Of a stretch of 32,000 bases of DNA, positions 6,212-31,457 are shown one piece after another. The translations under genes and the position numbers were made by a program. Numbering within the stretch: the stretch's first letter is position 1; every line of letters begins with the position of its first letter. Origin of the DNA: Roseovarius aestuarii. Lineage in GTDB: Bacteria; Pseudomonadota; Alphaproteobacteria; Rhodobacterales; Rhodobacteraceae. A model generated the notes under the pieces. The model made no database searches, was not told the DNA's origin, and worked only from the letters and a program-made list of their open reading frames with translations. The stretch covers positions 141,348 through 173,347 of the forward strand of contig JAPWHL010000006.1 in the NCBI GenBank assembly GCA_027214255.1, given 5' to 3'.

Positions 6212-6433
6212 TTATGCCTTGTCGCGGTAATGGTTCAGCACAAAGACGCGGATGGCCGAGGCCAGCCCGATGTCCGGCCCGCGCGCGGCGTCAATACGGG
6301 CCGCGAGCGCGTTGATCGGTGAGCCGGATTGTGCGGCAATGTCGCGAAAGGCCTGCCAGAACTCGGCCTCAAGCGAGACCGAAGTTCGGTGCCCGTGTAA
6401 GGTAAGCGAGTGTTTGACAGGCCGCTGTGACAT
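6212..6433 (-). CDS. Ribbon-helix-helix domain protein (RHH_4-like small protein)
   Basis: 73 aa. The pattern HSLTLHGHRTSVSLEAEFWQAFRDIA...LAARID matches the small RHH proteins commonly found beside fumC in alphaproteobacteria. This is recognition from memory, not a search. Confidence 0.65.
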   Translation of the reverse strand: MSQRPVKHSLTLHGHRTSVSLEAEFWQAFRDIAAQSGSPINALAARIDAARGPDIGLASAIRVFVLNHYRDKA

Positions 6434-10035: not shown

Positions 10036-10862
10036 GTCCTTTGAACTGCCGGTGGGCTGGGCCAGTCATGCCCTTCGCTGTGACCATCGCGCGCCCAACG
10101 ATACAATGCATCATACAGCGCCAAGCCGGCCTCTAACTGGGCCTGATCGTTGCGAAACTGGCGTGACAATCCGACTGAAACCGCCAGCAATCCGGCAGCA
10201 ACCGGATGCATGTCTTGTCGGTTGGTATCGGCTGCGCGAATGGCCAAGGCCATTCGGTCCAGCGCCGGGGTATGCAGGCAAAAACGGTCCAACATCACGT
10301 CAAAAGTACAATGATCCCCTTCGTGCGTGAAGGGCGCATCCTGCGTGTCAAAGGGCGTTGCGTTAAACATGGACGCTCCGGTTCCCACTTCGCTGTCTGC
10401 CACGAATAAAAAACGCGCGTTTGGGTCGACAAACCGCCGGATCAACCAAGGGCAGGCGATGCGGTCTATCTTGGGGCGGGTACGCGTGATCCAGCAGGTC
10501 TGCCCGTCAGGGTCGAACGGCACGGCAGCGACAGGTACCATGGGCGCGCCACTTTCGGCCCAGGCTTGAGCGCCACCCGACAGGTATTCACTTGTTAATC
10601 CTTCGGCTTGCAGGGCGCTGACCATCACTTGGCTAAGTTTCTGTCCTCGGTGACAGGCAATGACCGAGGGTCGCCCCTGTAAACGCCGCATCAATCCGGG
10701 AATATCAGTATGGCTGTGACGGATCGAGGAAGGGATCAGGCGTGGATCGACGGCAAAATCATCAACAAGACGCATATCCACGATAACAGGGCAGTGTGGC
10801 GTGCCGATCAAACGAAACAAGTGTTGGCAGGTGATCTCGTTCGGGGCCGGCATGATTGACAC
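10032..10862 (-). CDS. Rhodanese-domain / ChrB C-terminal-domain fusion (chromate resistance protein)
   Basis: The N-terminal part resembles a rhodanese with candidate active-site loop CHRGQKLS. The C-terminal part carries RIACPWLIRRFVDPNARFLFV, typical of the ChrB chromate-resistance domain. It is coupled to chrA. Confidence 0.7.
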   Translation of the reverse strand: MSIMPAPNEITCQHLFRLIGTPHCPVIVDMRLVDDFAVDPRLIPSSIRHSHTDIPGLMRRLQGRPSVIACHRGQKLSQVMVSALQAEGLTSEYLSGGAQAWAESGAPMVPVAAVPFDPDGQTCWITRTRPKIDRIACPWLIRRFVDPNARFLFVADSEVGTGASMFNATPFDTQDAPFTHEGDHCTFDVMLDRFCLHTPALDRMALAIRAADTNRQDMHPVAAGLLAVSVGLSRQFRNDQAQLEAGLALYDALYRWARDGHSEGHDWPSPPAVQRT

Positions 10863-11087
10863 TTTGCATCCTGCGATAATCCGCGCAAAACGGATGTTGG
10901 ATGCAACCTTGGGTCACAACCTTGCGGGGCAGTCGTCGTCGTCCCCATAGGTCAAAGATTGCTTTAGGCTGATTGAATTGTCAATCAGCGGATTGGAACG
11001 GGCTGGGCCAAAGGCAACGTGGCAGGACCCGCGATATGATCCAGAAATTGGGATATTGGCAGACCGTACCGCACGTCGCGCCAATTC

Positions 11088-11125
11088 CCATAATGAAATC
11101 CCCCGGTGTATATTTCACACCGGGG
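11088..11125 (-). terminator. Candidate intrinsic terminator (possibly the end of the primary ssrA transcript)
   Basis: A 9-bp GC-rich stem pairs 11101-11109 with 11117-11125 around a 7-nt loop. On the minus strand it is followed by AUUUCAUUAU. No T-tract follows on the plus strand. Confidence 0.4.
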
Positions 11126-11239
11126 CATCAAGTGCGCGGGGGGCTAAGCTGCGGATGCTGCCGCTGCGCCTTCCGTGACCAGCGAACATGCCGTGCGACT
11201 TCGCAATCACATGCAACGTTACCGTGCGTTTATGAAATG

Positions 11240-11560
11240 AGGGGAAAGTGCAGGCTTCTGTTGCCAGGTGCCTGCGGACCCCGCCTTACGCGGCTAGGCG
11301 CAAGGGCTTAAGTTTCAGTCTCTCCGACCGCTTACGCGGCCATCGCTACTGGAGCACGATTGTCATTTGCAATTGTACTTTTCGGGCCGATACGGTGGCA
11401 CCCCGCCGAAACAAAGCATAACCCCTTTAGACGTTCGTCGATCCTGTTTCGACCCCCTCCGCCGCCAAATGAACGGGTATTGGTGGAGTCGCCGGGTACC
11501 GCCCCCGGGTCCGATCCGCGTATTACGAGCGCGTTTATGTTCATAGTCCCCGAGGGGACA
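11240..11560 (-). ncRNA. ssrA: tmRNA, circularly permuted two-piece form (acceptor piece, intervening segment, coding piece)
   Basis: Read on the minus strand. The acceptor piece ends GGAC-CCGGG-GGCGGUA-CCCGG-CGACUCC-ACCA (T-arm 11492-11508, 3' acceptor strand 11485-11491, ACCA 11481-11484). A 24-nt intervening segment follows (11457-11480). The coding piece begins GGGGUCG at 11456, which pairs with CGACUCC and gives a G3:U wobble, the Ala identity element. The tag frame is GCA AAU GAC AAU CGU GCU CCA GUA GCG AUG GCC GCG UAA = ANDNRAPVAMAA* (11370-11332). The stop codon sits in a GCCGC-GUAA-GCGGU hairpin. The 5' end is inferred from the promoter; the 3' end (about 11240) is only an estimate. 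Confidence 0.9.
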
Positions 11561-11565
11561 CAGGC

Positions 11566-11593
11566 AATATAGGGGCACACAGCGTGAATGCAA
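11566..11593 (-). promoter_or_regulatory. Sigma-70-type promoter of ssrA
   Basis: On the minus strand: TTGCAT (11593-11588), a 16-nt spacer, then TATATT (11571-11566). The predicted start near 11559-11560 gives an acceptor piece of about 80 nt ending at the CCA. Confidence 0.6.
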
Positions 11594-11706
11594 CGGGGCA
11601 TGATCGTCAAAGAAGAAAATTCGTATATGGTGTCGCTGGCGTCGGTGGGGCGAAGGCCATAGAACGGCTGAGGCAGGGAAGCATGGATTACACAGAGGGG
11701 GCCGAC

Positions 11707-12528
11707 ATGACGCAACATTCGCTGGTTTCGGTCCTGATGCCCGTGTTCAACGATATCGCGACCTTATCTGCGTCGGTCGCGTCGGTGCGTGCCCAGAGCT
11801 ATGCGGATTGGGAGCTCTTGCTGATTGATGACGGCTCGGATGATGACACGGTGGTGCTTGCGACGGCCCTTGCCGCCGAAGACCCGCGCATCCGGCTGTT
11901 ACGCATGCCTGCCAACGCTGGTGCGGCGGCAGCGCGCAACATGGGGCTGGATCACAGCCGGGGGCGGTATATCGCGTTGCTGGATGCAGACGACATTTGG
12001 CACCCCGAGAAGTTGAGCCGCCAACTGGCGTTTATGGACAGGCGCGGTGCAGCGCTTAGTTTTACGGGCTATTCCCGCGTCTCGCCGGACGGTGCGCAGA
12101 TCGAACGGGTGCATGTCCCCGATAGGGTTGAGTATCGGACACTGCTCAGGCGCAATATTATGGGTGCATTGACGGTGATTTATGACGCCGAGGCATTGGG
12201 CCGTGTACCGATGCCTGAGCTTGCACGTCAGCACGATTTCGCGCTGTGGCTGCGTTTGACGCGGTTGCACGGCCCTGCGCACGGATTGGACGAGGATCTG
12301 GCGACGTATTTGGTGCGGCCCGGATCGCTGTCAGGCAACAAGCGGCGCGCGGCCTGCGACGCATGGCGGGTCTATCGCCACTGCGAAGAGTTGCCGCTGT
12401 TTTCCGCGCTCAAGTATTTTGCATGCTACACCTACTACGGCCTGCGTTATAGGCTGTTTCAACGAGCCAAGCTCACACCAGAGACGGTGTCGCCTAAGGG
12501 ATCAGTTGACGCAGATCTTCGGCGATAA
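11707..12528 (+). CDS. Family 2 glycosyltransferase (TuaG-like pattern)
   Basis: VSVLMPVFND...WELLLIDDGSDDDT...ARNMGL...YIALLDADDIWHPEKL...YRTLLRRNIMG is the GT-A/GT2 DxD architecture. ATG 11707 is preferred over GTG 11584, with GAGGGG at 11695-11700. The 3' end overlaps the convergent gene by 35 nt. Confidence 0.85.
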   Translation: MTQHSLVSVLMPVFNDIATLSASVASVRAQSYADWELLLIDDGSDDDTVVLATALAAEDPRIRLLRMPANAGAAAARNMGLDHSRGRYIALLDADDIWHPEKLSRQLAFMDRRGAALSFTGYSRVSPDGAQIERVHVPDRVEYRTLLRRNIMGALTVIYDAEALGRVPMPELARQHDFALWLRLTRLHGPAHGLDEDLATYLVRPGSLSGNKRRAACDAWRVYRHCEELPLFSALKYFACYTYYGLRYRLFQRAKLTPETVSPKGSVDADLRR

Positions 12529-13813
12529 CTTCGGACGAGGGCGGACCGGGGGGCAGAACCAGCGCGATTTTCTCCTGTCGCAAATCGTGCAGGGGGTCGT
12601 CACCGTGCACAGCCACCCGTTCAAACTGCTGGCGCAGCTCGTCAGGGCTGTAGACTTGATAGAATGCTTGTTTCAGGTCCTGACCGATGTCGTTCAACGC
12701 CCCGGTGCCGGGGTTGCGCATACGGATGATCGGTGCCCCCGTCGGCAGGTATTCGGCTAGAAAACTTCCGCTGTCGGTGATCAGTAAATCTGATGTTCGG
12801 AAATGTTTGAAATATCGCCCGCCTTTGAAGACGGTGCAATTCTTCCGTGTTTCCCAGCCTTTGAACCACTTGTTAATGTCCGCTTGGGACATTTCGCCGT
12901 TCTGGCCAAGCGCATAGCGCATGTTGGGATGTGGTTTTAGCAGGAAGTCGATCTCGGGATGGGTGGTCGCCAACTCTTCCATCACCGGGCCGGACCATGC
13001 AAAGGTCGACAGGCCCAACGACGCTTCGCCGATGGCGTGGTGGGGGGCATAGATGACGCGGAGTCGGTCTGTATCTTTGCGATGTGACCAACGGCGCACG
13101 CTTTTGCGCTCGGGCGCGGGGCGGCGGTACATGTCCAACTTGGGATAGCCTCCCAGACGCAGGGACGTTTCGGGGGGGCGGCCGGGTGCATTGCTGGCGC
13201 GCATCAGGTCAAGATGGCGTTGGGTCTGTGCGTAGTACCGCCACAGATAGCCGTGAAAATATGGTTTTTGCCACTGCATGCTTTCGTTATCCAACACAAC
13301 GAAACCATAGTGCATATGTGCGCCCAGAACATCGCGCGACAAATGACGGGGGAGCTCCTGCATACCCCATGGCTGCTGATAAAAGATGACATCACAGGGC
13401 GGATGGCGCGGAATACGAACCTCGTCCAAGGTGGGCTCATAGAAATCGGCCCAGATCGGGCCAATCTTTCTGAAAAACGCGCGCATCTTTGTATAGGCGC
13501 GGCGTCGTGCGTCGGGGCGCATGCGTAGGGCGGTGTCGGACAAGGCGGGAAAGAAACCGCATTGAAAGGCGGGGTCGCTGTCAAGCGCCTTGAACAGGGA
13601 TCCGGCGCTCCACTTGGCACGTTCGCATACGACAAACCCGACGCGCAGGGGGTGATCCGGCGTGGCGTTTAATCGCGCACGGATTGTTGCCTCGGTTTTG
13701 GCAATGCGATGCGCGATACGGGCACGGCGATAGGACAAAGGCAGGATTCGATCCTGAAGGTGCCAGGCTAGTCGGCGAAGAAGAGATGTGATGCGATAGG
13801 GCAGAACGCTCAT
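12494..13813 (-). CDS. CDP-glycerol glycerophosphotransferase-family (TagF/TagB-like) phosphotransferase
   Basis: 439 aa. C-terminal-half motifs are GGYPKLD, RVIYAPHH, LLKPHPNM and SDLLITDSGSFLAEYLPTGAPII. These correspond to the G.PR.D / YAPT.R / H-P / ..LITDYSS...D....P.I pattern of TagF-type enzymes. Its ATG overlaps the upstream stop (ATGA at 13810-13813). Confidence 0.65.
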   Translation of the reverse strand: MSVLPYRITSLLRRLAWHLQDRILPLSYRRARIAHRIAKTEATIRARLNATPDHPLRVGFVVCERAKWSAGSLFKALDSDPAFQCGFFPALSDTALRMRPDARRRAYTKMRAFFRKIGPIWADFYEPTLDEVRIPRHPPCDVIFYQQPWGMQELPRHLSRDVLGAHMHYGFVVLDNESMQWQKPYFHGYLWRYYAQTQRHLDLMRASNAPGRPPETSLRLGGYPKLDMYRRPAPERKSVRRWSHRKDTDRLRVIYAPHHAIGEASLGLSTFAWSGPVMEELATTHPEIDFLLKPHPNMRYALGQNGEMSQADINKWFKGWETRKNCTVFKGGRYFKHFRTSDLLITDSGSFLAEYLPTGAPIIRMRNPGTGALNDIGQDLKQAFYQVYSPDELRQQFERVAVHGDDPLHDLRQEKIALVLPPGPPSSEVIAEDLRQLIP

Positions 13814-15330
13814 ATCACCGGCTCGGCCTCGCTGGGTAGGGGGTAGAGGGGTTGCAAGGAAATCGGCAGGAAATGATCCCCCAGTCCGGCGGCCTCCAGC
13901 CGGTCAACCAATGCGCGCTGCTCGGCAAGGGTCAGGCAGGTTTGGTTCAGCATTTGCGCGGCACGGCGGGGCAACATGTGATTTGAATAGGTGAAATACG
14001 GATTGGGCGTCGCCCAGTCCTTGCCGTAGTAAGCCGCCAAAAACGAAGCGGTCTCGCGCGGCTTTTCCACGGGCATCGAGCACATGTCGACGGTGATACA
14101 ATCGCGTAAACTGTCCAGTTCCAAAGGTAGGCACGCCATTTTATGCAGCAAAACGTGCCCATGACCGTCTGAAAAAATCGGCGTCACGTCAAGATGCAGC
14201 GCCGGGCCGGTTTCAGGAGCCGCGATGCGAAACGGTTTGCCTTCGCGATTGACCACCACGGTCAGACCAGCATGCGCCAGTTTTTCGATCCGCTCGATTG
14301 CATCCGCCTTGACCTCCGGGCCGGTGGTGGCGTCCGTAACATAACCCACGTCGAAATCATCATCACCGGGGATAAACCCGTCTTCACGGTGCTGACCCAA
14401 AAGCGTGCCGCACATCAGCAACAAGGGACGTCCCCAGACATGGTGAAAAACCTTGTTCGCCCGTTGGTACAGTTCAAGATAAGCTTTGTGTTTTTCAATT
14501 AAAAGCTCGGGGGGCGGGGGCAGGTTGCCCTTTTTGTCCAGTTTTCCACAGATCGCGACCTGTTCGGCCAATGTGCCGTCGCCGTGCGGAATGGTGAGGC
14601 AAACTTCGGCACCCAATTCGCGTGATTGTAGCAGCCTTCCGTCGCTGAAGCGCAGACGTAAACAGCATTCCCGTGGAAAATGGGCCAGTGTGTCGCGTTT
14701 TATCGTATAGTGGAATTCGGCCCGCCCATCGCGATAGGTCAGGCGGTTGCGGCGCAATGCAATGCCATCGACCTCAATCACCAGCGCGTCGGCAGGGGTT
14801 TCTGACAGGGCCAGAACCTTTAGGCCCATATAGCTGAATTCCAGGTGAAACTGCGCGGTTTTCAGCGTGGCAACACGTGGCGCGTCGCCATTTTTTGCGG
14901 CGGGGGCCATAGAGCAATGGAACAGCGGATCGACCAACGGCTGGCCGGGCTGGACGCCCTTACCCCGATGATAAAGCGCCCCGGCGCGATGTGCCTTGCC
15001 ATGGCGCACAAGATAGCGGGCATGTTGAAACACCAGATCCGGATGCGGGTGCACCCGGTTCAATACGCCTGCGCCCAGCCCGATTACCATTTCCGGCACC
15101 AACCGCTTTAAGAACAGCGGCATGCGGCGCCGATAGAAGTTAAGTAATCTTCGTTTCATTCGGGTTCCAAGGCGCTTTATCGGGTTGCCAGACATGACGC
15201 AGGGGCGCGTCGCATGCAAGAGATTTCGGGTAGGGGCAGCACGCCGGACGGTGCTATGTTGCAGACTTCTGACCCTAGTGCGCGGCAACCATTGATCAAG
15301 TCCGGCTAACCATACTTTCGATAAAAACAC
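13810..15330 (-). CDS. LicD-family phosphotransferase with a large N-terminal extension of unknown function
   Basis: LicD core LLLMCGTLLGQHREDGFIPGDDDFDVGY plus the C-terminal FLAAYYGKDWATPNP motif. The first 290 or so residues have no family I recognise. The start is uncertain (alternatives ATG 15195 and ATG 15159). Confidence 0.7.
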   Translation of the reverse strand: MFLSKVWLAGLDQWLPRTRVRSLQHSTVRRAAPTRNLLHATRPCVMSGNPIKRLGTRMKRRLLNFYRRRMPLFLKRLVPEMVIGLGAGVLNRVHPHPDLVFQHARYLVRHGKAHRAGALYHRGKGVQPGQPLVDPLFHCSMAPAAKNGDAPRVATLKTAQFHLEFSYMGLKVLALSETPADALVIEVDGIALRRNRLTYRDGRAEFHYTIKRDTLAHFPRECCLRLRFSDGRLLQSRELGAEVCLTIPHGDGTLAEQVAICGKLDKKGNLPPPPELLIEKHKAYLELYQRANKVFHHVWGRPLLLMCGTLLGQHREDGFIPGDDDFDVGYVTDATTGPEVKADAIERIEKLAHAGLTVVVNREGKPFRIAAPETGPALHLDVTPIFSDGHGHVLLHKMACLPLELDSLRDCITVDMCSMPVEKPRETASFLAAYYGKDWATPNPYFTYSNHMLPRRAAQMLNQTCLTLAEQRALVDRLEAAGLGDHFLPISLQPLYPLPSEAEPVI

Positions 15331-15382
15331 GCGAAGGCCCGGTGTGGCACGATCCCGGTGGGATCATGCCAACCGGCGGTTA

Positions 15383-16417
15383 TTATTTGCCAAACCCCAG
15401 TTCTTCTGGCGTGGACAGTTTAAGGCCGCCATCCTCCAGCCAGTAAATCCAATCCTCTTTTGGCACATCCCAATCCGCGCCATATCGGAGCGCCAGATAA
15501 GCCTCGGGGGCCTTGGGCATTGGCACGTTGATATCGTTCAACGTCAACTGGGACAGTTCCTCAAAATGGTGTGCGGGCAAGACCCAGCATGCCGTCCGGT
15601 GCAAAACGCGAAACGGATACCGTGTGCTCCAGACTTCGCGGGGATATCTGCTGCGGATCCGCACGAAGACACGCCAGATAAGGCTGAGAACTTTGCGCGC
15701 AAAGGGATGGCGAGAATTCTTGTGCTTGTGAACGGCATAGGTCAGCTGCATCGCGCGGCGCATGCGTTTGTTGCCCGGGAAGTGCTTTTCCATTTCGGGA
15801 CGGTTGCGGCGGTAATAACTGATCGTTTGCGGCCGCCAGAGGGTGTCCCCCTGACGGTAGTTGATGTGCACATGAACGGTCTTCATTTTCGGCAATTTGA
15901 TCGTGTAACCGAAATTGCGACCTTGATAGATGCGCTCTGTCACCCGGATGCCTTGGGCACGCAGGTCTTCGGCTAGCGCTTCCATCAATGGTAACTGATC
16001 GTCCCACGCCCCGAAATCAATATCACTGTCCCACGCGATAGGGCCGCCATCGCGCAAGGGCCCCAACAGTGATCCACTGTCCAGCCAGAAATGCGTCAGC
16101 TTTTGCGCCAGAACCACTGTTGCACGCAGGACGTTGCCGTGGGTGATCGCGGGATCGCACGGGGTAGTCAGAACCATTTTGAGCGCGAACGCCTCAAGAT
16201 CCTGTGCCAATTTTACATCCACGCGCCCGCGTTGCTTTGGCAGGGCCTGTAGTTCGATCAGGAATCTGGGCCAATGACCAATCTGGGCAAGTAAAGCCAG
16301 TTGCGCCCAAGCCTCACGCGCGGTGGGCAGGGGGCCAACGGCCCCCCGTTTACCTGCCAGCAGATCGACCAGATAGGCGCGTGCTGGGCACGCCTTTACC
16401 CATCCTTGGGCAGACAT
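15383..16417 (-). CDS. LicD-family phosphotransferase
   Basis: FWLDSGSLLGPLRDGGPIAWDSDIDFGAW (LicD DxD core) and YLALRYGADWDVPKEDW (C-terminal LicD motif). The ATG directly abuts the upstream stop (TAGATG at 16415-16420). Confidence 0.72.
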   Translation of the reverse strand: MSAQGWVKACPARAYLVDLLAGKRGAVGPLPTAREAWAQLALLAQIGHWPRFLIELQALPKQRGRVDVKLAQDLEAFALKMVLTTPCDPAITHGNVLRATVVLAQKLTHFWLDSGSLLGPLRDGGPIAWDSDIDFGAWDDQLPLMEALAEDLRAQGIRVTERIYQGRNFGYTIKLPKMKTVHVHINYRQGDTLWRPQTISYYRRNRPEMEKHFPGNKRMRRAMQLTYAVHKHKNSRHPFARKVLSLIWRVFVRIRSRYPREVWSTRYPFRVLHRTACWVLPAHHFEELSQLTLNDINVPMPKAPEAYLALRYGADWDVPKEDWIYWLEDGGLKLSTPEELGFGK

Positions 16418-18052
16418 CTACTGAGCGCCGTTTGCCGCGGCAGCAGCTGCTTTTGCCTGTTCTTTCTCGGCCAGCGCCTGCTCTGCTTCGATATCGATGG
16501 CTCGCTGGCGGTTGGCGATGATGCGCAGACGTTCCAGCCATGGGTTCTGGGCAAGAACTTCGGCATCCTTGTCGAGATACTTCAGGACCTTTTCCCAGTC
16601 GCGAACTTTGAGGCCTTCGAACATTTTCCGCCAGCGCGAGTAACGCAGGAAATCGTGACGCACGACTTCGACGTTAGGTGCGTCCGTGTAAACGTCAAAC
16701 AGCGAGTAAGGGACGCGCCATTCCGTGCCATAGTTCCATTCCAGATACTTTTCGGTCTCTGCGGGGATCATGAACTCGGTGCCATCAACCTCATAGGGTT
16801 TCAGTTCGAACTCAGGGTGCCACCAACGGGCCACTGTTCCTGCGTGCCACTGACGGTCGCCTTCTTTGAAGTAGGGGAACACATCAATCCATACGCCATT
16901 GCGGTGAATGGCACGAATACGGTCGGCGTGATCGTCAACGCGTTTGATCTGGAAATTGCCGCTGTCACGCAGCAGGGTTTCAATTGCAGGACGATCCCAG
17001 TCTTTTTCAAAGACCCCGCAATCGACATCCTTGTCCCCAACCAGAAGTTGACCGTCTCGGATATAGCCCAGAACGGTGCCAGCCATCAGGAAGAATGGCA
17101 CGTTGCCTGCTTCCAGAGCGCTTTTGAAATCTTTCAGGCAGGTTTCGCCTTTGCCACCGGCCAAATCGTTGGATTTTGCCTTGATGACCTTGGCAATCGG
17201 CGCGTCGATGCCGTTTTTGGCAACCTGCGCGGTCAGGGTCTGTGTTTGGGTCGCAATCAGGCGACGATAGATGCTGTAGGCCAGTTCGAAATCATCAACC
17301 AATGTCGCAGATTTGGCCACAGCACGTTCAATCGCATCGCTCAACTTCTTGGTGGCCAGCAGGTTACGCCAGCGGATGGCCAAGGCATCGTGATGCTCGG
17401 GCTTTTCGACCAGAGCGGCGTAATCCCACCACAATTGCCAAGCGGCCGGTTCACGGTCGATGGCCGCCAGCAGCAAGGCGCGGGCGCTGTCGCCTTGACC
17501 GGCACCATCCAGCGCCTCGGCCCAGTTGCGGCGGCGCGTGCGGTCGTATCCGGCAATCGCTTCCGCCTCGCCGAACAACATCGCGGCCTCGGCGGGGTCG
17601 TTTTGACGTAGGCGGCATGTTCCCAGCAACGTCAGGCATGGCGCGTCCAGCGGTTCTTCGGCCAAATAGGGGCGCAACAGACTTTCGACGCGTTCAAATT
17701 TACCTTCCTCCAATGCCTGCTTGTAAAGCGACATGTAAGGGTTTTTCACCTTGTTGCGGTTCGCTGCGGCGGCCTTGGCGGCGGCGGCTTTTTTCGTTGC
17801 GGCTGTTTTGGCAGCGGCTGCTTTTTTGGCAGCGGCGGTTTTGGCGGCAGCGGCCTTTTTAGCAGCAGCGGCTTTCTTGGCAGCGGCTGTTTTGGCAGCG
17901 GCTGTTTTGGCGGCTGTTGTGCTCATACTCGGTGCTTTCGTTGCGGATGTCGGTTTTTTTGCTGTGGCGGCTGTTTTTGAAGCGCTTTTGCGAGGTTGTG
18001 TTCCTGCAAGTTCGCGACCAACCCGCCCCTTTATTCTGGACATTAAACTCAT
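16418..18052 (-). CDS. LicD-family phosphotransferase with an N-terminal Ala/Lys-rich basic repeat region and a helical (TPR-like) middle region
   Basis: LicD core PFFLMAGTVLGYIRDGQLLVGDKDVDCGVF and KYLEWNYGTEWRVPYSLFD in the C-terminal half. The N-terminus carries AAKTAAAKTAAAKKAAAAKKAAAAKTAAAKKAAAAKTAATKKAAAAKAAAA. The true start could lie further in (for example Met43). Confidence 0.7.
   Translation of the reverse strand: MSLMSRIKGRVGRELAGTQPRKSASKTAATAKKPTSATKAPSMSTTAAKTAAAKTAAAKKAAAAKKAAAAKTAAAKKAAAAKTAATKKAAAAKAAAANRNKVKNPYMSLYKQALEEGKFERVESLLRPYLAEEPLDAPCLTLLGTCRLRQNDPAEAAMLFGEAEAIAGYDRTRRRNWAEALDGAGQGDSARALLLAAIDREPAAWQLWWDYAALVEKPEHHDALAIRWRNLLATKKLSDAIERAVAKSATLVDDFELAYSIYRRLIATQTQTLTAQVAKNGIDAPIAKVIKAKSNDLAGGKGETCLKDFKSALEAGNVPFFLMAGTVLGYIRDGQLLVGDKDVDCGVFEKDWDRPAIETLLRDSGNFQIKRVDDHADRIRAIHRNGVWIDVFPYFKEGDRQWHAGTVARWWHPEFELKPYEVDGTEFMIPAETEKYLEWNYGTEWRVPYSLFDVYTDAPNVEVVRHDFLRYSRWRKMFEGLKVRDWEKVLKYLDKDAEVLAQNPWLERLRIIANRQRAIDIEAEQALAEKEQAKAAAAAANGAQ
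17762..17914 (-). repeat. Degenerate 15-18-nt tandem repeats encoding (K[KT]AAA[A])n inside the LicD gene
   Basis: About nine successive KTAAA/KKAAAA units (residues about 47-97). On the plus strand this reads as gcggc(t/g)g(c/t)ttt(t)ttggca-type iterations. It also generates a spurious Ala/Val/Leu-rich ORF on the plus strand (17751..18065). Confidence 0.8.
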
Positions 18053-18090
18053 GTTTGGTGCCTAACTCTTCTCGGTCTTAAAATGTCGCG

Positions 18091-19224
18091 TTAAATGCGA
18101 AAGATGCGGGACATGGCAGTGTCATCTAGCCCCACTGGATTATTGGACATCCGCTGCATGTTCACCTGTTGTGACAAAAAGCGGCGTTGTTCGGGCGTGT
18201 CCGCGCCCAATTTCTCCATATCAGGTTCGGTCCCGATCTTTATCATGAAATCGCGCAGAACCTGCGTGGCTTCGTCGGGGGAGCCCGCATTTAGCATAGG
18301 AAGTAGGCGATCCATGATGGCGCGCACATGCGCCGGGCCACGGGGATCCGTGATCTGATCATCCGTTGCGGCGGCGTGAATGCCTACGATTTCGGGCAGG
18401 GTCAGCCAAACTGCGTGTCCGTGGGGCACATCATGATGGCCCGTCAATCCATAGGCCCACGCATGGGCGGCTGTGGTTTTCGAGATGTTTATCGCACGCC
18501 CGGCAAGGTTGGCGGAAACGATCATGTCCTGAAACGCCTGATCGTCAGCCGATTTTGCCACGACAGCGGGTAAGTGGCGCATCACCTTTTCGATGGATTC
18601 CCACGAATATTCGCGGCTTTCCTCGGTCGAGCCTGCGGCCCATGCACTTTCTATGGCCTGTGCCAGCGCGTCCAGACCGTTACACGCCCGCTGATAGGGC
18701 GTGGACGAGGCAAGAAGGCTGCCATCGAGAATGATTTCTTCGGGCAACAACAATTGCGAGGCCAGCGAATATTTGTCCTTGCCGATATAGACCACGGCAA
18801 AATGGGTCGCCTCCGAGCCGGACCCGGCCGTTGTCGGAACGGCGATCAGGGGCAGGCCGGGATCGGTCATCTGAAGCTCACCCTTGGCCAATGCGTGTGA
18901 TTGGCTGGGGTCGGCATAAAATGCCTTGATCAGTTTGGCCATGTCCATCGGGCTACCGCCGCCGACCGCCAGAATGAGGTCAACACCCTCTGCGCGTGCA
19001 AGGGCAGTGCCGCGCTCGGCGTCTTCGATCTTGGGGTTCACCGCAAAATCGCTGAACCGCACAACGCTGCCGTCCTCAAAAATCGGATCAATCACCGCTG
19101 CTGCGCCGCAGGCGGCATAGGATGCCTTGCCTGTCACCAGTAACGTTTTCTTAGCGTTGTATTTTTTCAAAAGCTGAGGCAGCTCGCTCAGGCTGCCAAT
19201 CCCGCTCGTGTAATTTGGTGTCAT
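18091..19224 (-). CDS. Iron-containing (group III) alcohol dehydrogenase; probable phosphonoacetaldehyde reductase
   Basis: Fe-ADH motifs GGGSPMDMAK and PLIAVPTTAGSGSE plus His-rich metal ligands (AHAWAY...HDVPHGHAV). The function is inferred from position directly downstream of ppd. ATG 19224 (MTPNYTSG) is preferred, with GGGGGGA about 8 nt upstream; the ORF track starts at 19245. Confidence 0.7.
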   Translation of the reverse strand: MTPNYTSGIGSLSELPQLLKKYNAKKTLLVTGKASYAACGAAAVIDPIFEDGSVVRFSDFAVNPKIEDAERGTALARAEGVDLILAVGGGSPMDMAKLIKAFYADPSQSHALAKGELQMTDPGLPLIAVPTTAGSGSEATHFAVVYIGKDKYSLASQLLLPEEIILDGSLLASSTPYQRACNGLDALAQAIESAWAAGSTEESREYSWESIEKVMRHLPAVVAKSADDQAFQDMIVSANLAGRAINISKTTAAHAWAYGLTGHHDVPHGHAVWLTLPEIVGIHAAATDDQITDPRGPAHVRAIMDRLLPMLNAGSPDEATQVLRDFMIKIGTEPDMEKLGADTPEQRRFLSQQVNMQRMSNNPVGLDDTAMSRIFRI

Positions 19225-19297
19225 CGCGTGTGTCCCCCCACGCATAAATTTTTAAGGTGCGGCCCCGGCGATCATTCAAACGCCGGGGCCGTATCTT

Positions 19298-20434
19298 TTA
19301 ACCGCGCAAGCGGGCCATAAAGTTTGCCTTGTTTTCGGCAGGTGTTTCTTTTGGCCGCCCCAGATCGCTGCGCGATCCGGTATTTACGCGTACTTCTAGA
19401 AAACGACGGCCGGGCAGGGCGGTCAGACGCGCTACTTCTGAGGCAACTGCGTCTTTGTCCGTTACGGGGCCGACAATTTCATCGTATCCACAGGCGCGGG
19501 CGATATCGGTCATGGCGACGTCAAACCCGACGGTTGGCTGGCCACCGACACTGTCATGGGCACCGTTGTTCAACACAATGTGCAACAGGTTGCCGGTTTT
19601 GGACTGACCGATTGTCGCCATGCCGCCCATATGCATCAGAACCGCGCCGTCACCGTCGATGCAGGTCACGTCCTTTTCAGGGGCCGCGATGGCGATGCCC
19701 AATGCAATCTGGCTGGCGTGGCCCATACCGCCCACGGTCAGGAAGTCCGACGCGCGGTCCTGTCCTTTGAAGCCGCGCTGTTCATACAGTTCGCGGCTGA
19801 TCATACCCGTCGTGGCAACGATGGTACTGTCGCTGCGCACGGTTTCCGTGACCAGCGAAATTGCCTCTTCGCGCTCCATGATCGACGGGTCTTTTTCGCG
19901 TGCGGGGCGTTTTTGCTCGGCTTTGCCGAAGGCGCCCTTATGGACCAGAAGGACAACGGGACCGTTGCGATCACGGGCTGTGTCGGCCGCCCATTTGGCG
20001 TTCTCGGCAGCAGCGGATTCGTCACCGTCCAGCTCACGATAGGGGATTTCCATAGCGTCCAACGAGGCAGGTGTGACCCGGCCCTGTTTAACGTGCTGGG
20101 GTTCGTCCTTGACGCCGGGCTTGCCGCGCCAGCCCACGAGGATGATCATCGGCAGGCCGTAAACCTCGGGGTCTGCAATCGACAAGGCGGGGTTCACGAT
20201 GTTCCCCAACCCTGAGTTTTGCAGATAGACCATTGGCAGATCACCTGTCGCCAGATAATAGCCGGTCGCCAGACCCATGGCTGTGCCTTCGTTGGCTGCG
20301 ATCACATGTTTTTCGGCAGGCAGAGCCGCGTCAACATAGGCGCAGAACTCTTTCAGCAGGCTGTCGGGAACCCCGGCCAGAAAGCTGACGCCTTCTGCCG
20401 CGAGGGATTCATGAAAGGATTTGGGCGAGATCAT
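19298..20434 (-). CDS. ppd: Phosphonopyruvate decarboxylase (thiamine-diphosphate dependent)
   Basis: 378 aa. The N-terminus FHESLAAEGVSFLAGVPDSLLKEF is typical of Ppd/AepY. ThDP motif GDG-x25-NN (GDGAVLMHMGG...HIVLNNGAHDSVGGQ). Its ATG overlaps the pepM stop by 1 nt (TAATG, 20432-20436). Confidence 0.88.
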   Translation of the reverse strand: MISPKSFHESLAAEGVSFLAGVPDSLLKEFCAYVDAALPAEKHVIAANEGTAMGLATGYYLATGDLPMVYLQNSGLGNIVNPALSIADPEVYGLPMIILVGWRGKPGVKDEPQHVKQGRVTPASLDAMEIPYRELDGDESAAAENAKWAADTARDRNGPVVLLVHKGAFGKAEQKRPAREKDPSIMEREEAISLVTETVRSDSTIVATTGMISRELYEQRGFKGQDRASDFLTVGGMGHASQIALGIAIAAPEKDVTCIDGDGAVLMHMGGMATIGQSKTGNLLHIVLNNGAHDSVGGQPTVGFDVAMTDIARACGYDEIVGPVTDKDAVASEVARLTALPGRRFLEVRVNTGSRSDLGRPKETPAENKANFMARLRG

Positions 20435-21735
20435 TATTTCGTCCCCGGGATCAGTTCGAGGATCTCCTTGATCGGCATCATGTTCTCGTCACATTCTTTC
20501 GAACGCTGGTGCGTCAGGATCGATTTGGCCGTGTTCATCATGGCCGGATAGGCCGAGCGCAGCAGTTGGTTGGCGTAAATCACGATGTTCGCGCCATGCT
20601 CTTTCAATTCGTCCTCGGTGACGTGGTTATAGGAGGACGGCACGACAACCAGCGGCTTGCGGTTCTCCAGCTTGTTGTATTCCTTGCAGAAATCAAAGAT
20701 TTCCTGACCATCTTTGTGGCGGCTGTGGATCATGCAACCATCGGCGCCCGCTTCGATAAACGCCTTGGCGCGTTCCATCGCATGTTCAACGCTATGGCCA
20801 AGGATCAGGCTTTCCAGACGGGCGATGATCATGAAATCATCCGAATGCTGCGCGGCTTTACCGGCGCGGATCTTGTCGGAAAACTCTTCGATGCTGGCCT
20901 GCGTTTGGGCCACATCGGTGCCAAAAAGCGAGTTTTTCTTCAACCCGGTCTTATCTTCGATGATAACGGCCGAAACGCCCAGACGCTCCAATGTGCGCAC
21001 GGTAAAGACGAAGTGCTCGGTTTTGCCGCCAGTGTCGCCGTCATAGATGATCGGTTTGGTGGTGACTTCGAGAACTTCGTTCAGCGTGATCGCACGGGCG
21101 GTGGTATCGACCGCTTCGATGTCGGGCTTGCCCTTGGACGTCGAGTCGGTCAGCGAGCTGGCCCACATGCCATCAAATTCGCGGGTGCCGTTCTCGGTTT
21201 CGACCTTGGCTTTTTCGATGATCAGGCCGGACAGACCGCTGTGCAAATCGGCAAAACGCACCAGTGGTTTGGCGGCCAACATGCGGCGCAGGCTGGCGCG
21301 GCGGATGTCAGGCGTGGTGCCGATTTCCTTCATCGCCTTGTGGAATTTGGTCGACGAAATGCCCTGGGTGTAGGGAACTTCTACCAGTTTTCCGCCCCAT
21401 TCGCCCAACACGTCGATGACGCTTTGACGGACTTTGGCTTGAACGCCTGTCTGCCAGTCGTCACCGTGCACGACGATGTCGGGCTTGTAGGTGCGCAGGT
21501 TGGGGATATAGTCCAACGTTTCCTGAGGAACGACGCGTGAAACGCCCTTCAAGGCGCCAATAACGGCCCGGCGCTGTTCGAAGTCCATGAAAGGTACGCG
21601 TTTGTAGCTTGCGATGGCCTGATCGGTGAGCAGACCCACGGTGACGTCACCATGTTCAGCGGCCTGATTGATGATGTTGATGTGGCCCGGATGGATCAGG
21701 TCGGCGCTCATACCTACGTAGACGGATGCGGTCAT
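20434..21735 (-). CDS. pepM: Fusion protein: N-terminal HxGH cytidylyltransferase domain plus C-terminal phosphoenolpyruvate mutase
   Basis: The N-terminal 135 or so aa read [18 protein letters not shown]...VVHGDDW...TQGISSTKF, the TagD/ECT-type CTP-transferase fold (HxGH and RTxGISTT-like motifs). The C-terminal 290 or so aa belong to the ICL/PEP-mutase superfamily and carry [12 protein letters not shown]. That is the EDK-x5-NS motif used to separate true PEP mutases from relatives. ATG 21735 is preferred over TTG 21747. Confidence 0.88.
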
Positions 21736-22160
21736 GTTTATTCCCAATTGTGAGTACTCAAAGTGCGTTTGTCGTGACTGTATTAAAGTTTTTACAAATC
21801 AATGTTATCATCCAAGATAGGAATGAGTTTGCTTTGGCGAACTATAAATCCACAGCCCAGACTTCCGTGCGGCTTTTAATAGAGCGGCCCTGGTTTCGCA
21901 ACCGTTTCTTCCTTGTGAAACGGGTTCGGATAGGTATCGGATGGTGGTATTTGCGTGGTATGTTGGTTCGATTTGGAAGCTGATGCTCTCAACGTCGATG
22001 TGCGCAAGTTGATTTGAATTCTGTCATTTGCTGGTCTTTTCGGTGATTTTGATTTGTTTTTTCTCATTAATGCAAGCGATTGCAGCATTAATGGAAGTGG
22101 TATTAGAAAACGGTTATCGGACGGCGGAATCCTGCCCGTCGAAGTTTAGCCGCCATTAGA

Positions 22161-22197
22161 CATTATAAAACCGCCCCCCGAAGGGGCGGCTTTTTGG
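22161..22197 (-). terminator. Rho-independent terminator downstream of the 839-aa gene (bidirectional in appearance)
   Basis: Stem CCGCCCC (22171-22177) pairs with GGGGCGG (22083+100, i.e. 22183-22189) around a 5-nt loop. On the minus strand it is followed by TTTTATAATG; on the plus strand by CTTTTT. Confidence 0.75.
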
Positions 22198-22239: not shown

Positions 22240-24759
22240 TCAGGCTGATTGGCGAAACTCTGTTTCATCGGTGACGGCAAAGCGACCGCCTTTCAGTTTC
22301 TGCAACTTGCCCTGACGCAGAAGTTGACCGAACGAGCGCAGGCCCTCTTCGCGGGTAAATTCACTTTGATCTACCTCACGCAGCTTTTGCATCAGCATGG
22401 GGCGCGAAAACTGCTCCATACCTTCGACATCCGACATGTAGGCAGCGGCGGCCTCTAGCAGATCGGTCAGGCCGCGTGCGCCCATGTTCTCTGCAAATTC
22501 GCCAAAGCTGCCTTGGGCGGCTTGCGGTGTTTGTTTGGGCGATGATTTGGACGGTGCAGCGTCGTGTGCAGGCTCGTTTGGGGTGGGGCGGGCGGAAGCG
22601 GCACCGGTCGTGGGGCGTGCCCGGCTTTCCAGATCCGCACGCGAGATGCGGCGCGGGCGCACTGGCTGGGCCGGGGCGTCGATGCGCTGTTCGGCGACCA
22701 GTTTCAGTGGCGCGGGGCGCGTTGTCACCGGGCGCTCTGATCGCGATGCGTTGCTGGCAATTGCCTGTGGGCGACGGGGGCGCACGGCGCTTTCCAGATC
22801 CATCCTGTAGGGTTGATCGTCTACGTCGCGTGCCATCGCGCCACCTGCGTTGCGTTCGGCCTTGGTCGCGGCAACTGCGGCGCGCAAGTGTTGGATGGCG
22901 CTGCGCCGTTTGTTGGATTCGGGCTCTTCCAGTTGCGATGCAGCCTCGTCGAAAATGCGTGGTGCCTGCGCATCGGTGCCGATTTTGTCCAGACGAACGG
23001 CCCGCTTGGGGGTGATGATAACCTCGGGCGTGTCGTCGCCTTGGCTGTCGTCATCCTCGAGGGAGTCTGAATCCAGATCGTCGGCCTGACTGTCGATGTC
23101 GCTTGTTGCGGAAGTATTGGCGTCATCCGCCTGCTGAACATCTTCTGATTCTGGGGCCGTCAGGCTGGCGATGTTGGCGGTGATTGCGTCGATCTGATCA
23201 ATGTCCGATGTGGCGTCTGGGGCGTCGTTCTCCAGAATTGTGCGGGTCTGGCGCAATTCGGCTTCGACTTCGGCCAGCTCACGCTGCAACTCGGCCTCGG
23301 CTTGCGGGCTGAGGCTGGACGTTACGTCGGAGTCGTCATCCTCTTCCGCGTCGAGCGTGTCACCGGCCAAAACGGCATCCAAATCGGCACGCTTCATTTT
23401 AACAACGCGGGCACGCAGCGGTGCAATGTCCGTTGTTTCGCTCGTGTCCTCGGATGGTTGATCGTCGTCCTGAACGTCGGCTGTTGGCTTATCCGCCGGG
23501 GCCGGGGCGTCTTGACCCAGCGCGTCGGCCAGCAACTGTGACAGCGTGTCTTCGGCGGAATCCGACGAATCCTGTTCGGCGATGTCATCGCCAAGCCCGT
23601 CGTCATCTGCGTCATTGTCGTCATGGCTTTGGGCCGAGATCGAGTTCAGAAGGTTTGTCAGTTCGTCGTCGGCGTCATCTGTGTCGGTGTCGTCCGCGTC
23701 TTCCATCTGAGCGCTGATTTCGGCGTTGTCCGTTTCATCCACCATATCGGATGCAGGCGTGGTTTCCTCTTGCGCAAAATCGTCATTGGACGCGCTAAAC
23801 CGTGCCAGCATGTCGTGATCGTCATCGACCGCCTCGGCGCTTACGTCGGTTGAAGCGGCGGCAGTTGCGTCATCCTCCACAGCTTCCTGTGTTTGCCCCT
23901 GGTCAATGGGGACGTCGGTATCTGCTTTTAAATTGTCCTCGGACTCGTCGTCTTCGGCCAATGCGGCGTCCAGATCGGCAGCAGTTTCGCTGAGGAAGTC
24001 ATGCGCATGTTCGTCTTCGGCGTAAAATGACTCCTCGGCCTCGGAATCTTCGGCGTCAAACTCGGACATCATGCTGCTTGCTGCGGTGGTTCCCAGTGCG
24101 GGCGTGGCGACGGCGCGGATACGGCGCAATTTGTCTGCGACGCTGTCGCCAAAGGGGGCGGCCTGTGGCGCGACGGGTTGGGCAGCAGGGGCTTCCATAG
24201 CTGGGGCGATGTTCGCGGCCTGTGCGGCAGGCTGTGCCGGTGCGGCAGGTGCCGGAGCGCGTTGCGCCTGAACCGGTTGAGCATTGGCCTGTTGTGTCGG
24301 GGAGGGTGTCGCAGGGGCCGGTGTGGCAGGGGCGTTCACGTCCGGCGTCACGACTGCCTCAGGGGCGCGTTCCTGAACGTCGGTCGGTGCCTGTGTCTCT
24401 TGTGGCAAAGCCGCTGCCATGTCCTGAGCAGTGGACATGGCAGGGTTTTCGACCGCTGCGCCGTTTTGAGCGGCAGCTTCAAGCGCAGGGGCCGGTCCGG
24501 CACGCAGGTGGATACGCCCATCAGTACTGTGGGCTTCGACACGGCGTGCAATTTCGCGTTCGGCAATACGAGCCAGCATTTCTGCGTCGGGCGATGGAGG
24601 TTCGGCACCAAAGTACCGGTCATCCGCTGCTAGGTCGCGAAAATACTCTGCAATCGCCTTCATGGTATCGAAGGAATCGTCGAACCCTTCCAAGGTGCAC
24701 GAGAACGTGCCGTAGGAAACGGTAAGGATTTTACTTGTGCTAACCATCTTTTTGCTCAC
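22240..24759 (-). CDS. Large hyper-acidic, largely low-complexity protein of unknown function with small structured-looking N- and C-terminal domains
   Basis: 839-aa ORF with GTG at 24759 (an ATG lies 4 codons in). N-terminus: ILTVSYGTFSCTLEGFDDSFDTMKAIAEYFRDLAADDRYFGAEPP. An Ala/Pro/Gln-rich segment comes next. A stretch of about 370 aa follows, dominated by Asp/Glu/Ala/Thr/Ser with almost no Lys/Arg. The C-terminus reads FGEFAENMGARGLTDLLEAAAAYMSDVEG...LLRQGKLQKLKGGRFAVTDETEF. There is no signal peptide or TM segment by eye. The length and consistent GC3-rich frame support coding. Confidence 0.7.
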   Translation of the reverse strand: MSKKMVSTSKILTVSYGTFSCTLEGFDDSFDTMKAIAEYFRDLAADDRYFGAEPPSPDAEMLARIAEREIARRVEAHSTDGRIHLRAGPAPALEAAAQNGAAVENPAMSTAQDMAAALPQETQAPTDVQERAPEAVVTPDVNAPATPAPATPSPTQQANAQPVQAQRAPAPAAPAQPAAQAANIAPAMEAPAAQPVAPQAAPFGDSVADKLRRIRAVATPALGTTAASSMMSEFDAEDSEAEESFYAEDEHAHDFLSETAADLDAALAEDDESEDNLKADTDVPIDQGQTQEAVEDDATAAASTDVSAEAVDDDHDMLARFSASNDDFAQEETTPASDMVDETDNAEISAQMEDADDTDTDDADDELTNLLNSISAQSHDDNDADDDGLGDDIAEQDSSDSAEDTLSQLLADALGQDAPAPADKPTADVQDDDQPSEDTSETTDIAPLRARVVKMKRADLDAVLAGDTLDAEEDDDSDVTSSLSPQAEAELQRELAEVEAELRQTRTILENDAPDATSDIDQIDAITANIASLTAPESEDVQQADDANTSATSDIDSQADDLDSDSLEDDDSQGDDTPEVIITPKRAVRLDKIGTDAQAPRIFDEAASQLEEPESNKRRSAIQHLRAAVAATKAERNAGGAMARDVDDQPYRMDLESAVRPRRPQAIASNASRSERPVTTRPAPLKLVAEQRIDAPAQPVRPRRISRADLESRARPTTGAASARPTPNEPAHDAAPSKSSPKQTPQAAQGSFGEFAENMGARGLTDLLEAAAAYMSDVEGMEQFSRPMLMQKLREVDQSEFTREEGLRSFGQLLRQGKLQKLKGGRFAVTDETEFRQSA

Positions 24760-31454: not shown

Positions 31455-31457
31455 GTC

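Follow-up and report, generated by a model that had tools for sequence, protein, structure and literature searches.

The DNA analysed in this study (the window) is a 32,000-nucleotide (nt) stretch of Roseovarius aestuarii, and the subject of this work is a group of seven minus-strand genes (12494-21747) that places enzymes of phosphonate biosynthesis beside LicD-family and TagF-related transferases. The last of the seven proteins, U439, is 100% identical to NCBI O4H61_07955, which confirms the alphaproteobacterial, Rhodobacterales origin guessed in a preliminary description of this DNA. All seven open reading frames (ORFs) of that description are present at the coordinates it claimed. In the direction of transcription, the first three genes encode a predicted Fom1-type fusion of a cytidylyltransferase (CyTase) and phosphoenolpyruvate (PEP) mutase (PepM) (20434-21735; PF01467, PF13714, TIGR02320), phosphonopyruvate decarboxylase (Ppd, 378 aa; 19298-20434; TIGR03297), and an Fe-dependent alcohol dehydrogenase (Fe-ADH, 377 aa; 18091-19224; PF00465 and PF25137). 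They are followed by genes for three predicted LicD-family phosphotransferases, L544 with a TPR region (16418-18052), L344 (15383-16417) and L449 with a LicD/FKRP fold (449 aa; 13810-15159), and by the gene for U439, a TagF-related GT-B transferase of 439 aa with an HP motif (12494-13813). A convergent glycosyltransferase family 2 (GT2) gene outside the bounds originally given is also part of the system. It encodes 273 aa from ATG 11707 on the plus strand (11707-12528; PF00535) and overlaps the 3′ end of the U439 gene by 35 nt.

Three gene starts needed correction. For the PepM fusion, ATG 21735 is the most likely start and gives the 433 aa seen in homologues, whereas the mechanical ORF runs from TTG 21747, and the TTGGGAATAAACATGACC motif at the former start is kept in strain KMM 6894 (L001; L-numbers denote contigs or loci with related genes). 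The most likely Fe-ADH start is ATG 19224, because an in-frame stop lies upstream of this codon in KMM 6894, and therefore the gap between the Ppd and Fe-ADH genes is 73 nt and contains a strong, conserved hairpin. The third LicD had been read as a 506-aa protein, which is over-extended. Both 16 aligned homologues and the NCBI gene model place its start (MKRRLL) at ATG 15159, giving 449 aa. With this start, the gap between L344 and L449 is 223 nt (15160-15382) and not 52 nt, so the claim that all remaining gaps span 38-52 nt no longer holds. The three tight junctions are as claimed: the ppd start overlaps the PepM stop (TAATG, 20432-20436), the L344 start abuts the L544 stop (TAG-ATG, 16415-16420), and the U439 start overlaps the L449 stop (ATGA, 13810-13813).

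The phosphonate cassette is borne out as a CyTase-PepM fusion, Ppd and Fe-ADH, with PepM and Ppd above curated profile cut-offs. The PepM domain scores 402.8 bits against TIGR02320 (equivalog cut-off 319.55) and 184 bits against PF13714, and its translation carries the PepM-specific EDKxxxxxNS motif, which separates PepM from other enzymes of the isocitrate-lyase superfamily (Rice 2019, PMC6697681). Ppd, with TPP_enzyme_N and TPP_enzyme_C domains, reaches 465.4 bits against TIGR03297 (equivalog cut-off 312.5). The CyTase domain fused to the N-terminal side of PepM matches PF01467 at 53 bits (cut-off 21). It also aligns with PDB 5X3D (213 bits, with 71% of 135 aa identical), and we take this chain to be the CyTase domain of Fom1. 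The PF01467 CyTase of Fom1 converts 2-hydroxyethylphosphonate (HEP) to its cytidine monophosphate (CMP)-activated form, CMP-HEP, and the fusion is carried by 23.6% of PepM enzymes (PMC6697681). The fused CyTase of the window appears to be of this Fom1 type (PF01467) and not of the LicC-like PntC type, which points to HEP in preference to 2-aminoethylphosphonate (AEP). No nucleotidyltransferase other than the PepM-fused one is visible in the window, L001, L068 or L071.

The third enzyme of the cassette has the Fe-ADH fold (PF00465, 138 bits; PF25137, 74.7 bits). An Fe-ADH gene directly follows ppd in L001, L015, L057, L064, L065, L068, L070 and L071. The enzymes at this position form two lineages that are ~30% identical, one in the window, L001 and L070 and the other in L064, L065, L068 and L071, which suggests displacement within the family. 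An aminotransferase gene was found neither in the 32-kb window nor in nine related contigs. The Fe-ADH is probably a phosphonoacetaldehyde reductase of the PhpC/FomC type. Since the Fe-ADH always follows Ppd, an aminotransferase is absent and the CyTase is 71% identical to 5X3D, a Fom1/Fom2/FomC-type route to CMP-HEP is predicted, in which HEP would be the substrate of the CyTase and CMP-HEP its product.

The first three genes thereby mirror the Fom1/Fom2/FomC logic of fosfomycin biosynthesis. The pathway of Streptomyces wedmorensis has the same three enzyme types (Fom1, the Ppd Fom2 and the Fe-ADH FomC) and the same CyTase-PepM fusion. Fom3, Fom4 and FomD, however, are absent here, and the host is a marine alphaproteobacterium. 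In the fosfomycin pathway CMP-HEP is a transient handle for C-methylation, whereas here we propose that it is a glycan-modification donor placed before four group-transferases and GT2. A fosfomycin-like small molecule, with CMP-HEP as a passing intermediate and the LicD and GT-B enzymes conjugating it to a small acceptor, is very improbable. Beside the cassette, the window and the related loci lack a radical-SAM methyltransferase, an epoxidase, an HEPD/MpnS-type dioxygenase, an ATP-grasp or non-ribosomal peptide synthetase enzyme and a CMP-phosphonate hydrolase. Its partners are instead genes for LicD, GT2, TagF-related, Wza, ABC-2, Bac_transf and KpsE-like proteins. The idea that U439 or the N-terminal extensions of the LicD proteins could be an MpnS- or HEPD-type dioxygenase was ruled out: U439 has a confident GT-B fold, L449 begins with helical and Ig-like parts, and L544 with a TPR region.

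The three LicD assignments hold, L344 directly and the other two at the level of their families. The Pfam gathering threshold for PF04991 is 22.6 bits, and L344 passes it with 33.3 bits over profile positions 8-227. The scores of L449 (21.6-21.9 bits, the 506-aa form included) and L544 (18.2 bits) lie just under it. PF04991 is matched by 23 of 24 members of the L449 family and by all 10 members of the L544 family, nine of which also match TPR, and hhalign relates the two families to each other with 98.5% probability (E 1.9e-15). The N-terminal G(T/S)LLG...R...DxDxD metal/nucleotide motif and the C-terminal YG..W..P motif are intact in all three proteins and invariant in the family alignments; they read GTVLGYIRDG..GDKDVD and NYGTEWRVP in L544, GSLLGPLRDG..WDSDID and RYGADWDVP in L344, and GTLLGQHREDG..GDDDFD and YYGKDWATP in L449. 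Among the LicD proteins the fold test covered the L449 model alone. This AlphaFold2 (AF2) model (pLDDT 87.5) has FKRP as all of its 13 best PDB matches (E 1.5e-6 to 1.4e-4) and no other significant match. According to the model, L449 consists of a helical N-terminus, an Ig-like beta-sandwich and the LicD/FKRP fold.

L544 has an Ala/Lys-rich, histone-H1-like tail, a TPR region and then the catalytic domain. Its homologues, 55-66% identical, follow PepM-Ppd-ADH in L064, L065, L068, L070, L071 and L072, and of the transferases L544 appears to have the closest link to the HEP cassette. Homologues of L344 (33-42% identical) are present in L062/L065, L064, L068, L071 and L072. The L544 tail comprises ~80 Ala/Lys/Thr-rich residues (39 Ala and 18 Lys) at positions ~21-100 (17750-17990, minus strand) and resembles histone H1-like or AlgP-type repeats. 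It is present in KMM 6894 and lies outside the matches to the other L544 homologues. Binding to an anionic polymer or to the membrane is a possible role. Several terminator-like matches on the plus strand fall within this repeat. In Natronohydrobacter (L062, 10001-12643, plus strand), the L449-type LicD has 880 aa, with repeated matches to the L449 N-terminal region before the catalytic part, and a GDPD phosphodiesterase comes next.

U439 had been described as TagF-like, and this description stands only in part. The GT-B fold, a family-level relation to PF04464 and the HP motif support it, but U439 itself has no Pfam match and lacks the catalytic histidine. Of the Pfam families expected for the cluster, PF13714, PF01467, TPP_enzyme N/C, PF00465 and, for L344, PF04991 were found, but not PF04464 for U439. 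No Pfam family matches U439 at E<=0.01, and searches of the PDB with the single sequence and with the family profile gave chance matches only, without any TagF or TarL chain. PF04464 is matched by 19 of 30 U439 homologues (best E 1.1e-10), in the C-terminal half only (profile positions ~133-367). The AF2 model (pLDDT 94.3) has a GT-B fold, and all of its 205 PDB matches at E<=1e-3 are GT-B proteins; the nearest solved folds in Foldseek are UDP-GlcNAc 2-epimerases (E 1.6e-13, TM ~0.55), with TagF outside the top 50.

TagF-like enzymes have two invariant histidines. The first (TagF H444, TarL H300) is the catalytic base in a WHG/WHA loop, the second (TagF H584, TarL H433), in an HP loop, protonates the phosphate of the departing CMP, and TarL E497 contacts the CMP ribose (PMC10901376). 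In U439 the KPHP histidine H295 and E354 (ITD..SF.AEY) are each found in 141 of 141 family representatives, D347 is invariant, and H258 is kept in 139 of 141, where APHH replaces PT(W/F)R. The canonical catalytic histidine, in contrast, is absent: by motif and secondary-structure register, on which this comparison with TagF rests, positions 146-150 are Q/Q/P/W/G in the 141 representatives. A canonical neighbour, a 388-aa protein in L057, has LWHG at that loop. We therefore class U439 as a TagF-related enzyme whose active site appears re-arranged, and not among the canonical TagF-like enzymes. The HP motif and the TagD-like CyTases that adjoin U439 homologues in at least 10 loci suggest CMP as the leaving group.

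The U439 family counts 2,104 representatives at E<=1e-30. Among the 140 best, 46 are at least 650 aa long, and in 10 sampled long relatives the U439-like part is preceded by an N-terminal GT2 in seven cases and by a GT4 in one. The GT2 of the window matches PF00535 at 123 bits, with TuaG as its best NCBIfam model (243 bits, below 400). The convergent pair with its 3′ overlap recurs in L001, L060, L068 and L072, and we read it as a split form of the architecture of Gram-negative teichoic-acid-like capsule polymerases, which joins a glycosyltransferase to a TagF-like enzyme (PMC5974469). The overlaps measure 19-35 nt (12494-12528 in the window, 11283-11317 in L001, 11272-11305 in L060, 13304-13322 in L068). 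The proteins of these genomes are just 43-60% identical. Conservation of such a convergent overlap is unusual, and the overlap might couple the expression of the two genes.

The same gene set is present in at least eight other contigs. KMM 6894 has the seven-gene order at 80-97% protein identity, four of the seven genes in this order are visible on the 5.9-kb metagenome contig L063, and L071 (46% GC) is fully collinear over all seven at 33-80% identity. Because the order recurs in these three, the arrangement is not due to chance. The multiplicity of four transferases behind one phosphonate cassette, singled out as unusual in the preliminary description, is real, but it is a recurrent and conserved design, not a one-off. 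The HEP cassette and TPR-LicD core is accompanied by a U439-like gene in seven of nine contigs (the window, L001, L063, L071, L068, L072 and L065), and in L015 genes like L449 and U439 directly follow Ppd and Fe-ADH.

The neighbourhoods of these relatives support the proposed surface-glycan function: the cluster often adjoins genes for Wza, ABC transporters (ABC_tran, ABC2_membrane) or initiating transferases (Bac_transf), and KpsE-like and YjbHF contexts also occur. In L068 and L072, PepM-Ppd-ADH-TPR-LicD-LicD-GT2 faces a U439-like gene and an ABC ATPase, and L068 additionally carries Wza, an epimerase/dehydratase and Bac_transf. In L064 and L070 the neighbours of the core are ABC-2 transporter, KpsE-like or YjbH/YjbF genes. 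In Natronohydrobacter (L065/L062), it is part of a ~25-kb cluster that also includes a canonical Glyphos_transf, additional nucleotidyltransferases and GDPD genes. A gammaproteobacterial metagenome-assembled genome (L057) combines the HEP cassette with two Glyphos_transf genes, a Wzx-type flippase and rhamnose genes, and has no LicD. Most of the 56 genomic loci with U439 homologues are without PepM, and many have a stand-alone TagD-like CyTase and/or GT2 and an L449-like LicD. In other Rhodobacteraceae, L449, U439 and GT2 are served by such a stand-alone CyTase. The cluster thus appears to be a composite of module A (the HEP cassette with the TPR-LicD and the L344-type LicD) and module B (L449, U439 and GT2).

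Our data suggest that the cluster makes a nucleotide-activated phosphonate, CMP-HEP, and installs it on a cell-surface glycan, a reading to which we assign a probability of about 0.6. The PepM domain would convert PEP to phosphonopyruvate and Ppd would convert this to phosphonoacetaldehyde, two steps predicted from strong family assignments. The Fe-ADH would then reduce phosphonoacetaldehyde to HEP, and the Fom1-type CyTase domain would couple HEP with cytidine triphosphate to give CMP-HEP. LicD enzymes use cytidine diphosphate (CDP)-choline, and FKRP uses CDP-ribitol. By analogy, L544, L344 and L449 may move the HEP-phosphonyl group of CMP-HEP onto acceptor hydroxyls with release of CMP, and U439 probably carries out the same transfer. 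Because GT2-U439 fusions occur in other bacteria, U439 is expected to work jointly with GT2, so that additions of sugar and of alcohol-phosph(on)ate would alternate or succeed each other on a lipid-linked glycan at the inner membrane face. Export would depend on capsule or exopolysaccharide machinery elsewhere in the genome, which in related clusters is encoded next door. Sequence evidence supports the family identities, the conservation of gene order and the presence of glycan-export genes around the relatives' clusters. We infer that the pathway is specific for HEP and that each transferase uses CMP-HEP, and the acceptor and the product's location are likewise inferences.

Several observations weigh against this reading. 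Genes for export or initiation are absent from the window; the earlier statement that the cluster has no Wzx/Wzy, ABC exporter or aminotransferase is valid for all 32 kb. The Fe-ADH scores 163.3 bits against the phosphonate-specific model Phn_Fe-ADH (TIGR03405), below its cut-off of 423.7, though this is its top NCBIfam match, and it is merely 28-36% identical to the Fe-ADH of most sister clusters. PhpC-type reductases are very divergent in general, at 26.8-39% identity (PMC13576164). In addition, AEP-type clusters, too, include PF01467-PepM fusions (Li & Horsman 2022, PMC8942020), and another part of the genome could encode an AEP transaminase. Such a transaminase would supply AEP, the fused CyTase would form CMP-AEP, and the Fe-ADH would be an accessory enzyme or serve in salvage. 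AEP is the phosphonate of most phosphonoglycan clusters. It makes up 56% of ppm neighbourhoods, and the clusters with the PF01467 fusion include some that encode the AEP transaminase (PMC8942020); Rhodobacterales also commonly have phnW for AEP catabolism (PMC9381506). We nevertheless judge AEP improbable as the substrate. The window and nine related contigs contain no aminotransferase, the Fe-ADH invariably follows Ppd, and the CyTase shares its 71% identity with a chain that we take to be the HEP-specific Fom1 domain.

The other points against the reading concern U439. Apart from the missing catalytic histidine, PepM-linked and TagD-linked members do not differ in the loop thought to face the donor alcohol, QQPWGMQ-D/E-LPR, and HEP-linked homologues are no closer to each other than to TagD-linked ones. 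Because neither the loop nor overall identity sets the HEP-linked homologues apart, U439 may use a donor other than CMP-HEP. In Natronohydrobacter the U439-like gene lies beside its own TagD-like CyTase despite the HEP cassette nearby. These features bring in the possibility that only module A (L544 and L344) uses CMP-HEP, and that module B takes a phosphate-based CDP-alcohol, such as CDP-glycerol, from a CyTase encoded elsewhere to build or modify that glycan or a different one; the product would be a teichoic-acid-like glycan that bears HEP as a side decoration. U439- and L449-like genes adjoin a TagD-like CyTase and a HIT-like protein in the PepM-less Rhodobacteraceae L059 and L062, and the best model of this CyTase is glycerol-3-phosphate cytidylyltransferase. 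The GDPD genes of Natronohydrobacter, the occurrence of a U439-GT2 pair alone among housekeeping genes (L060), and the 223-nt gap with a hairpin between the modules of the window also agree with separate donors. The TagD-like CyTases, however, score 71-84 bits against an equivalog cut-off of 165, and their own substrate is uncertain. Furthermore, a second cytidylyltransferase is lacking in the window, L001, L068 and L071, L449 and U439 keep their order and orientation relative to the HEP cassette even in the deeply diverged L071, and their counterparts come directly after Ppd and Fe-ADH in L015. We regard this two-donor arrangement as rather doubtful, but it remains credible because the U439 donor loop and homologue identities do not separate PepM-linked from TagD-linked members.

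The HIT-like protein of these loci, ~150 aa long, is always paired with the TagD-like CyTase (L059, 3348-3800, minus strand; L062, 9451-9909, plus strand). It carries an HFHI(F/L)PRYD motif and matches no profile, and a homologue sought in the window was not found.

Under the preferred reading, in which CMP-HEP serves glycan modification, HEP might even be a backbone unit and not just a terminal decoration of a teichoic-like capsule or exopolysaccharide, with C-P bonds in the repeat linkages. This extension is tentative and, on balance, unlikely. It is conceivable because CMP-HEP, like glycerol phosphate, has a free hydroxyl. GT2 would glycosylate this hydroxyl and U439 or the LicD enzymes would link the phosphonyl group with the sugar that follows, as in polymerases that combine a glycosyltransferase with a TagF-like enzyme; alternatively, HEP units would be joined head-to-tail. 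If true, a phosphono-teichoic polymer would be made by a TagF-related family in which another residue has taken the place of the canonical catalytic histidine. This polymer would be resistant to phosphodiesterases and could directly supply the polysaccharide with HEP that occurs in marine dissolved organic matter.

Parts of the system have known counterparts. PepM-LicD pairings, the Fom1 route to CMP-HEP, HEP-bearing polysaccharides and Gram-negative TagF-like polymerases are already known. A TagF-like enzyme in a Gram-negative bacterium, a setting that the preliminary description counted among the unusual features, is not unusual in itself (Litschko 2018, PMC5974469). The Gram-negative TagF-like capsule polymerases (PMC5974469) and TagF/TarL share with U439 the GT-B fold, the HP-motif histidine and the association with a glycosyltransferase, which is convergent here, and the small cytidylyltransferase and ABC-transporter capsule loci of the former recur in relatives of this cluster. 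Unlike TagF and TarL, the U439 family is without the catalytic-base histidine (QQPWG instead), and its presumed donor is a CMP-phosphonate. The AEP phosphonyl-tailoring clusters (PntC and LicD-like; PMC6697681) likewise have PepM and Ppd, cytidylyl activation and LicD-like transfer to cell-surface glycans. They use an AEP transaminase and a LicC-like PF12804 PntC, whereas the cluster described here has Fe-ADH, no transaminase and a PF01467 CyTase of predicted Fom1 type, together with three LicD paralogues with TPR or Ig-like extensions and a TagF-related enzyme.

HEP is found on the exopolysaccharide of Stackebrandtia and Glycomyces, methylphosphonate in Nitrosopumilus, and esters of both in the polysaccharide of marine dissolved organic matter of high molecular weight (PMC8942020, PMC13576164, PMC9381506). 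These systems share the PepM-Ppd-Fe-ADH (HEP) branch and a polysaccharide-bound product with the one proposed here, but the taxa are actinomycetes and archaea, and here neither MpnS nor HEPD is present. Several LicD paralogues alike are also a feature of FKTN/FKRP and LicD1/LicD2. FKRP is the sole significant structural match of L449, at ~21% identity; the N-terminal domains differ (TPR with an Ala/Lys tail, Ig-like sandwich), and the donor here would be a phosphonate. In the tandem transfer of ribitol phosphate by FKTN and FKRP and in the action of pneumococcal LicD1 and LicD2, serial LicD paralogues act on one glycan, and each sets CMP free from an alcohol phosphate in CDP- or CMP-activated form.

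The combination of an HEP cassette, three LicD proteins and a TagF-related/GT2 pair had not been recognised as characterised, and we likewise found no published description of it, nor a characterisation in roseobacters, in the searchable literature. Just two HEP-branch clusters have known products (PMC8942020), and the literature that we could read does not define which enzymes attach HEP to glycans, nor does it define heterotrophic producers that can be cultivated. The cluster is a compact, conserved candidate system in a roseobacter, with a predicted CMP-HEP donor pathway, three LicD-type transferases and a TagF-related/GT2 pair. It therefore offers a testable candidate source of the phosphonate-bearing polysaccharides in seawater and lets the installation of phosphonates on surface polymers be tested directly. 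It also bears on whether a phosphonate can replace the polyol phosphate of a teichoic-like polymer, and on the role of the re-arranged active site in a TagF-related family of ~2,100 members. The breakdown of phosphonates also feeds aerobic methane production.

The cluster is bounded at its 5′ side by an intrinsic terminator of the upstream gene U839 (22171-22189; CCGCCCC-ttcg-GGGGCGG followed by TTTT on the minus strand), and a stem-loop with a T-run at this position is also found in KMM 6894. Between it and the PepM fusion lies an ORF-free, AT-rich leader and promoter region of ~435 nt (21736-22170, minus strand), where the GC content is the lowest of the window (0.543 in 21001-22000). Several blocks of the leader are conserved with KMM 6894, including the ribosome-binding site and start TTGGGAATAAACATG. 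A scan for the sigma-70 consensus found no promoter in the leader, with matches rarer than in shuffled sequence; such a scan is uninformative in this GC-rich alphaproteobacterium. An Rfam scan of the region revealed no riboswitch or leader family. A weak isrG match (19 bits) is due to chance and falls within the Ala/Lys-repeat coding region of L544.

The GC-rich hairpin between ppd and the Fe-ADH gene (19261-19290, minus strand) has a Delta-G of -26.9 kcal/mol (z -4.6), and none of 200 shuffles was equally stable. Its stem, CCCCGGCG/CGCCGGGG, is kept in KMM 6894 (L001, ~4500-4530) and in L064 (~6400-6430) with different loops. Attenuation, mRNA stability or a joint left by recombination are possible explanations of the hairpin. 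In the 223-nt intergenic region (15160-15382, minus strand) set by the corrected L449 start, a hairpin (15346-15370) comes right after the L344 stop, and the fold of 15260-15382 has -51 kcal/mol (z -3.3). The ~90 nt directly upstream of L449 (15160-15250), which read CTTGCATGC...CCATGTC...AAAGCGCC, are conserved in KMM 6894 and L063, and the rest of the gap is not. The gap, with its hairpin and conserved segment, falls exactly at the boundary of the evolutionary modules A and B and is a possible site of an internal promoter, a partial terminator or a regulatory element. The argument for a single transcription unit is thus supported by the three overlapping or abutting junctions and weakened by this gap and the two strong hairpins, and one transcript for all seven genes is unproven. 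There is also no clear signal of a genomic island, with GC only marginally below that of the flanks.

On the GT2 side of the cluster, the window contains a complete alphaproteobacterial two-piece (permuted) tmRNA gene (11247-11598, minus strand; RF01849, 290.5 bits, gathering score 50). The mechanical GTG start of GT2 at 11584 falls within this gene, which also renders the ORFs 11332-11718 (minus strand) and 10973-11311 (plus strand) spurious. The SspB gene, which encodes the ssrA-tag adaptor (8236-8709), and chrBA (8782-10862) lie on the 3′ side of the tmRNA gene. On the other side, U839 (22240-24759, minus strand) encodes 839 aa, of which 21% are Asp+Glu, and its conserved N- and C-terminal domains flank a long acidic stretch of low complexity. 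It was rejected as a cluster member: it has its own canonical terminator, belongs to no Pfam or NCBIfam family and is syntenic in the close relative KMM 6894 only. Further along, a dimethylglycine-dehydrogenase-like gene (DAO and GCV_T) and, at the window edge, a truncated choline/ethanolamine-kinase-like ORF occupy 29010-32000 (minus strand); they probably belong to choline/glycine-betaine metabolism and are unrelated to the cluster.

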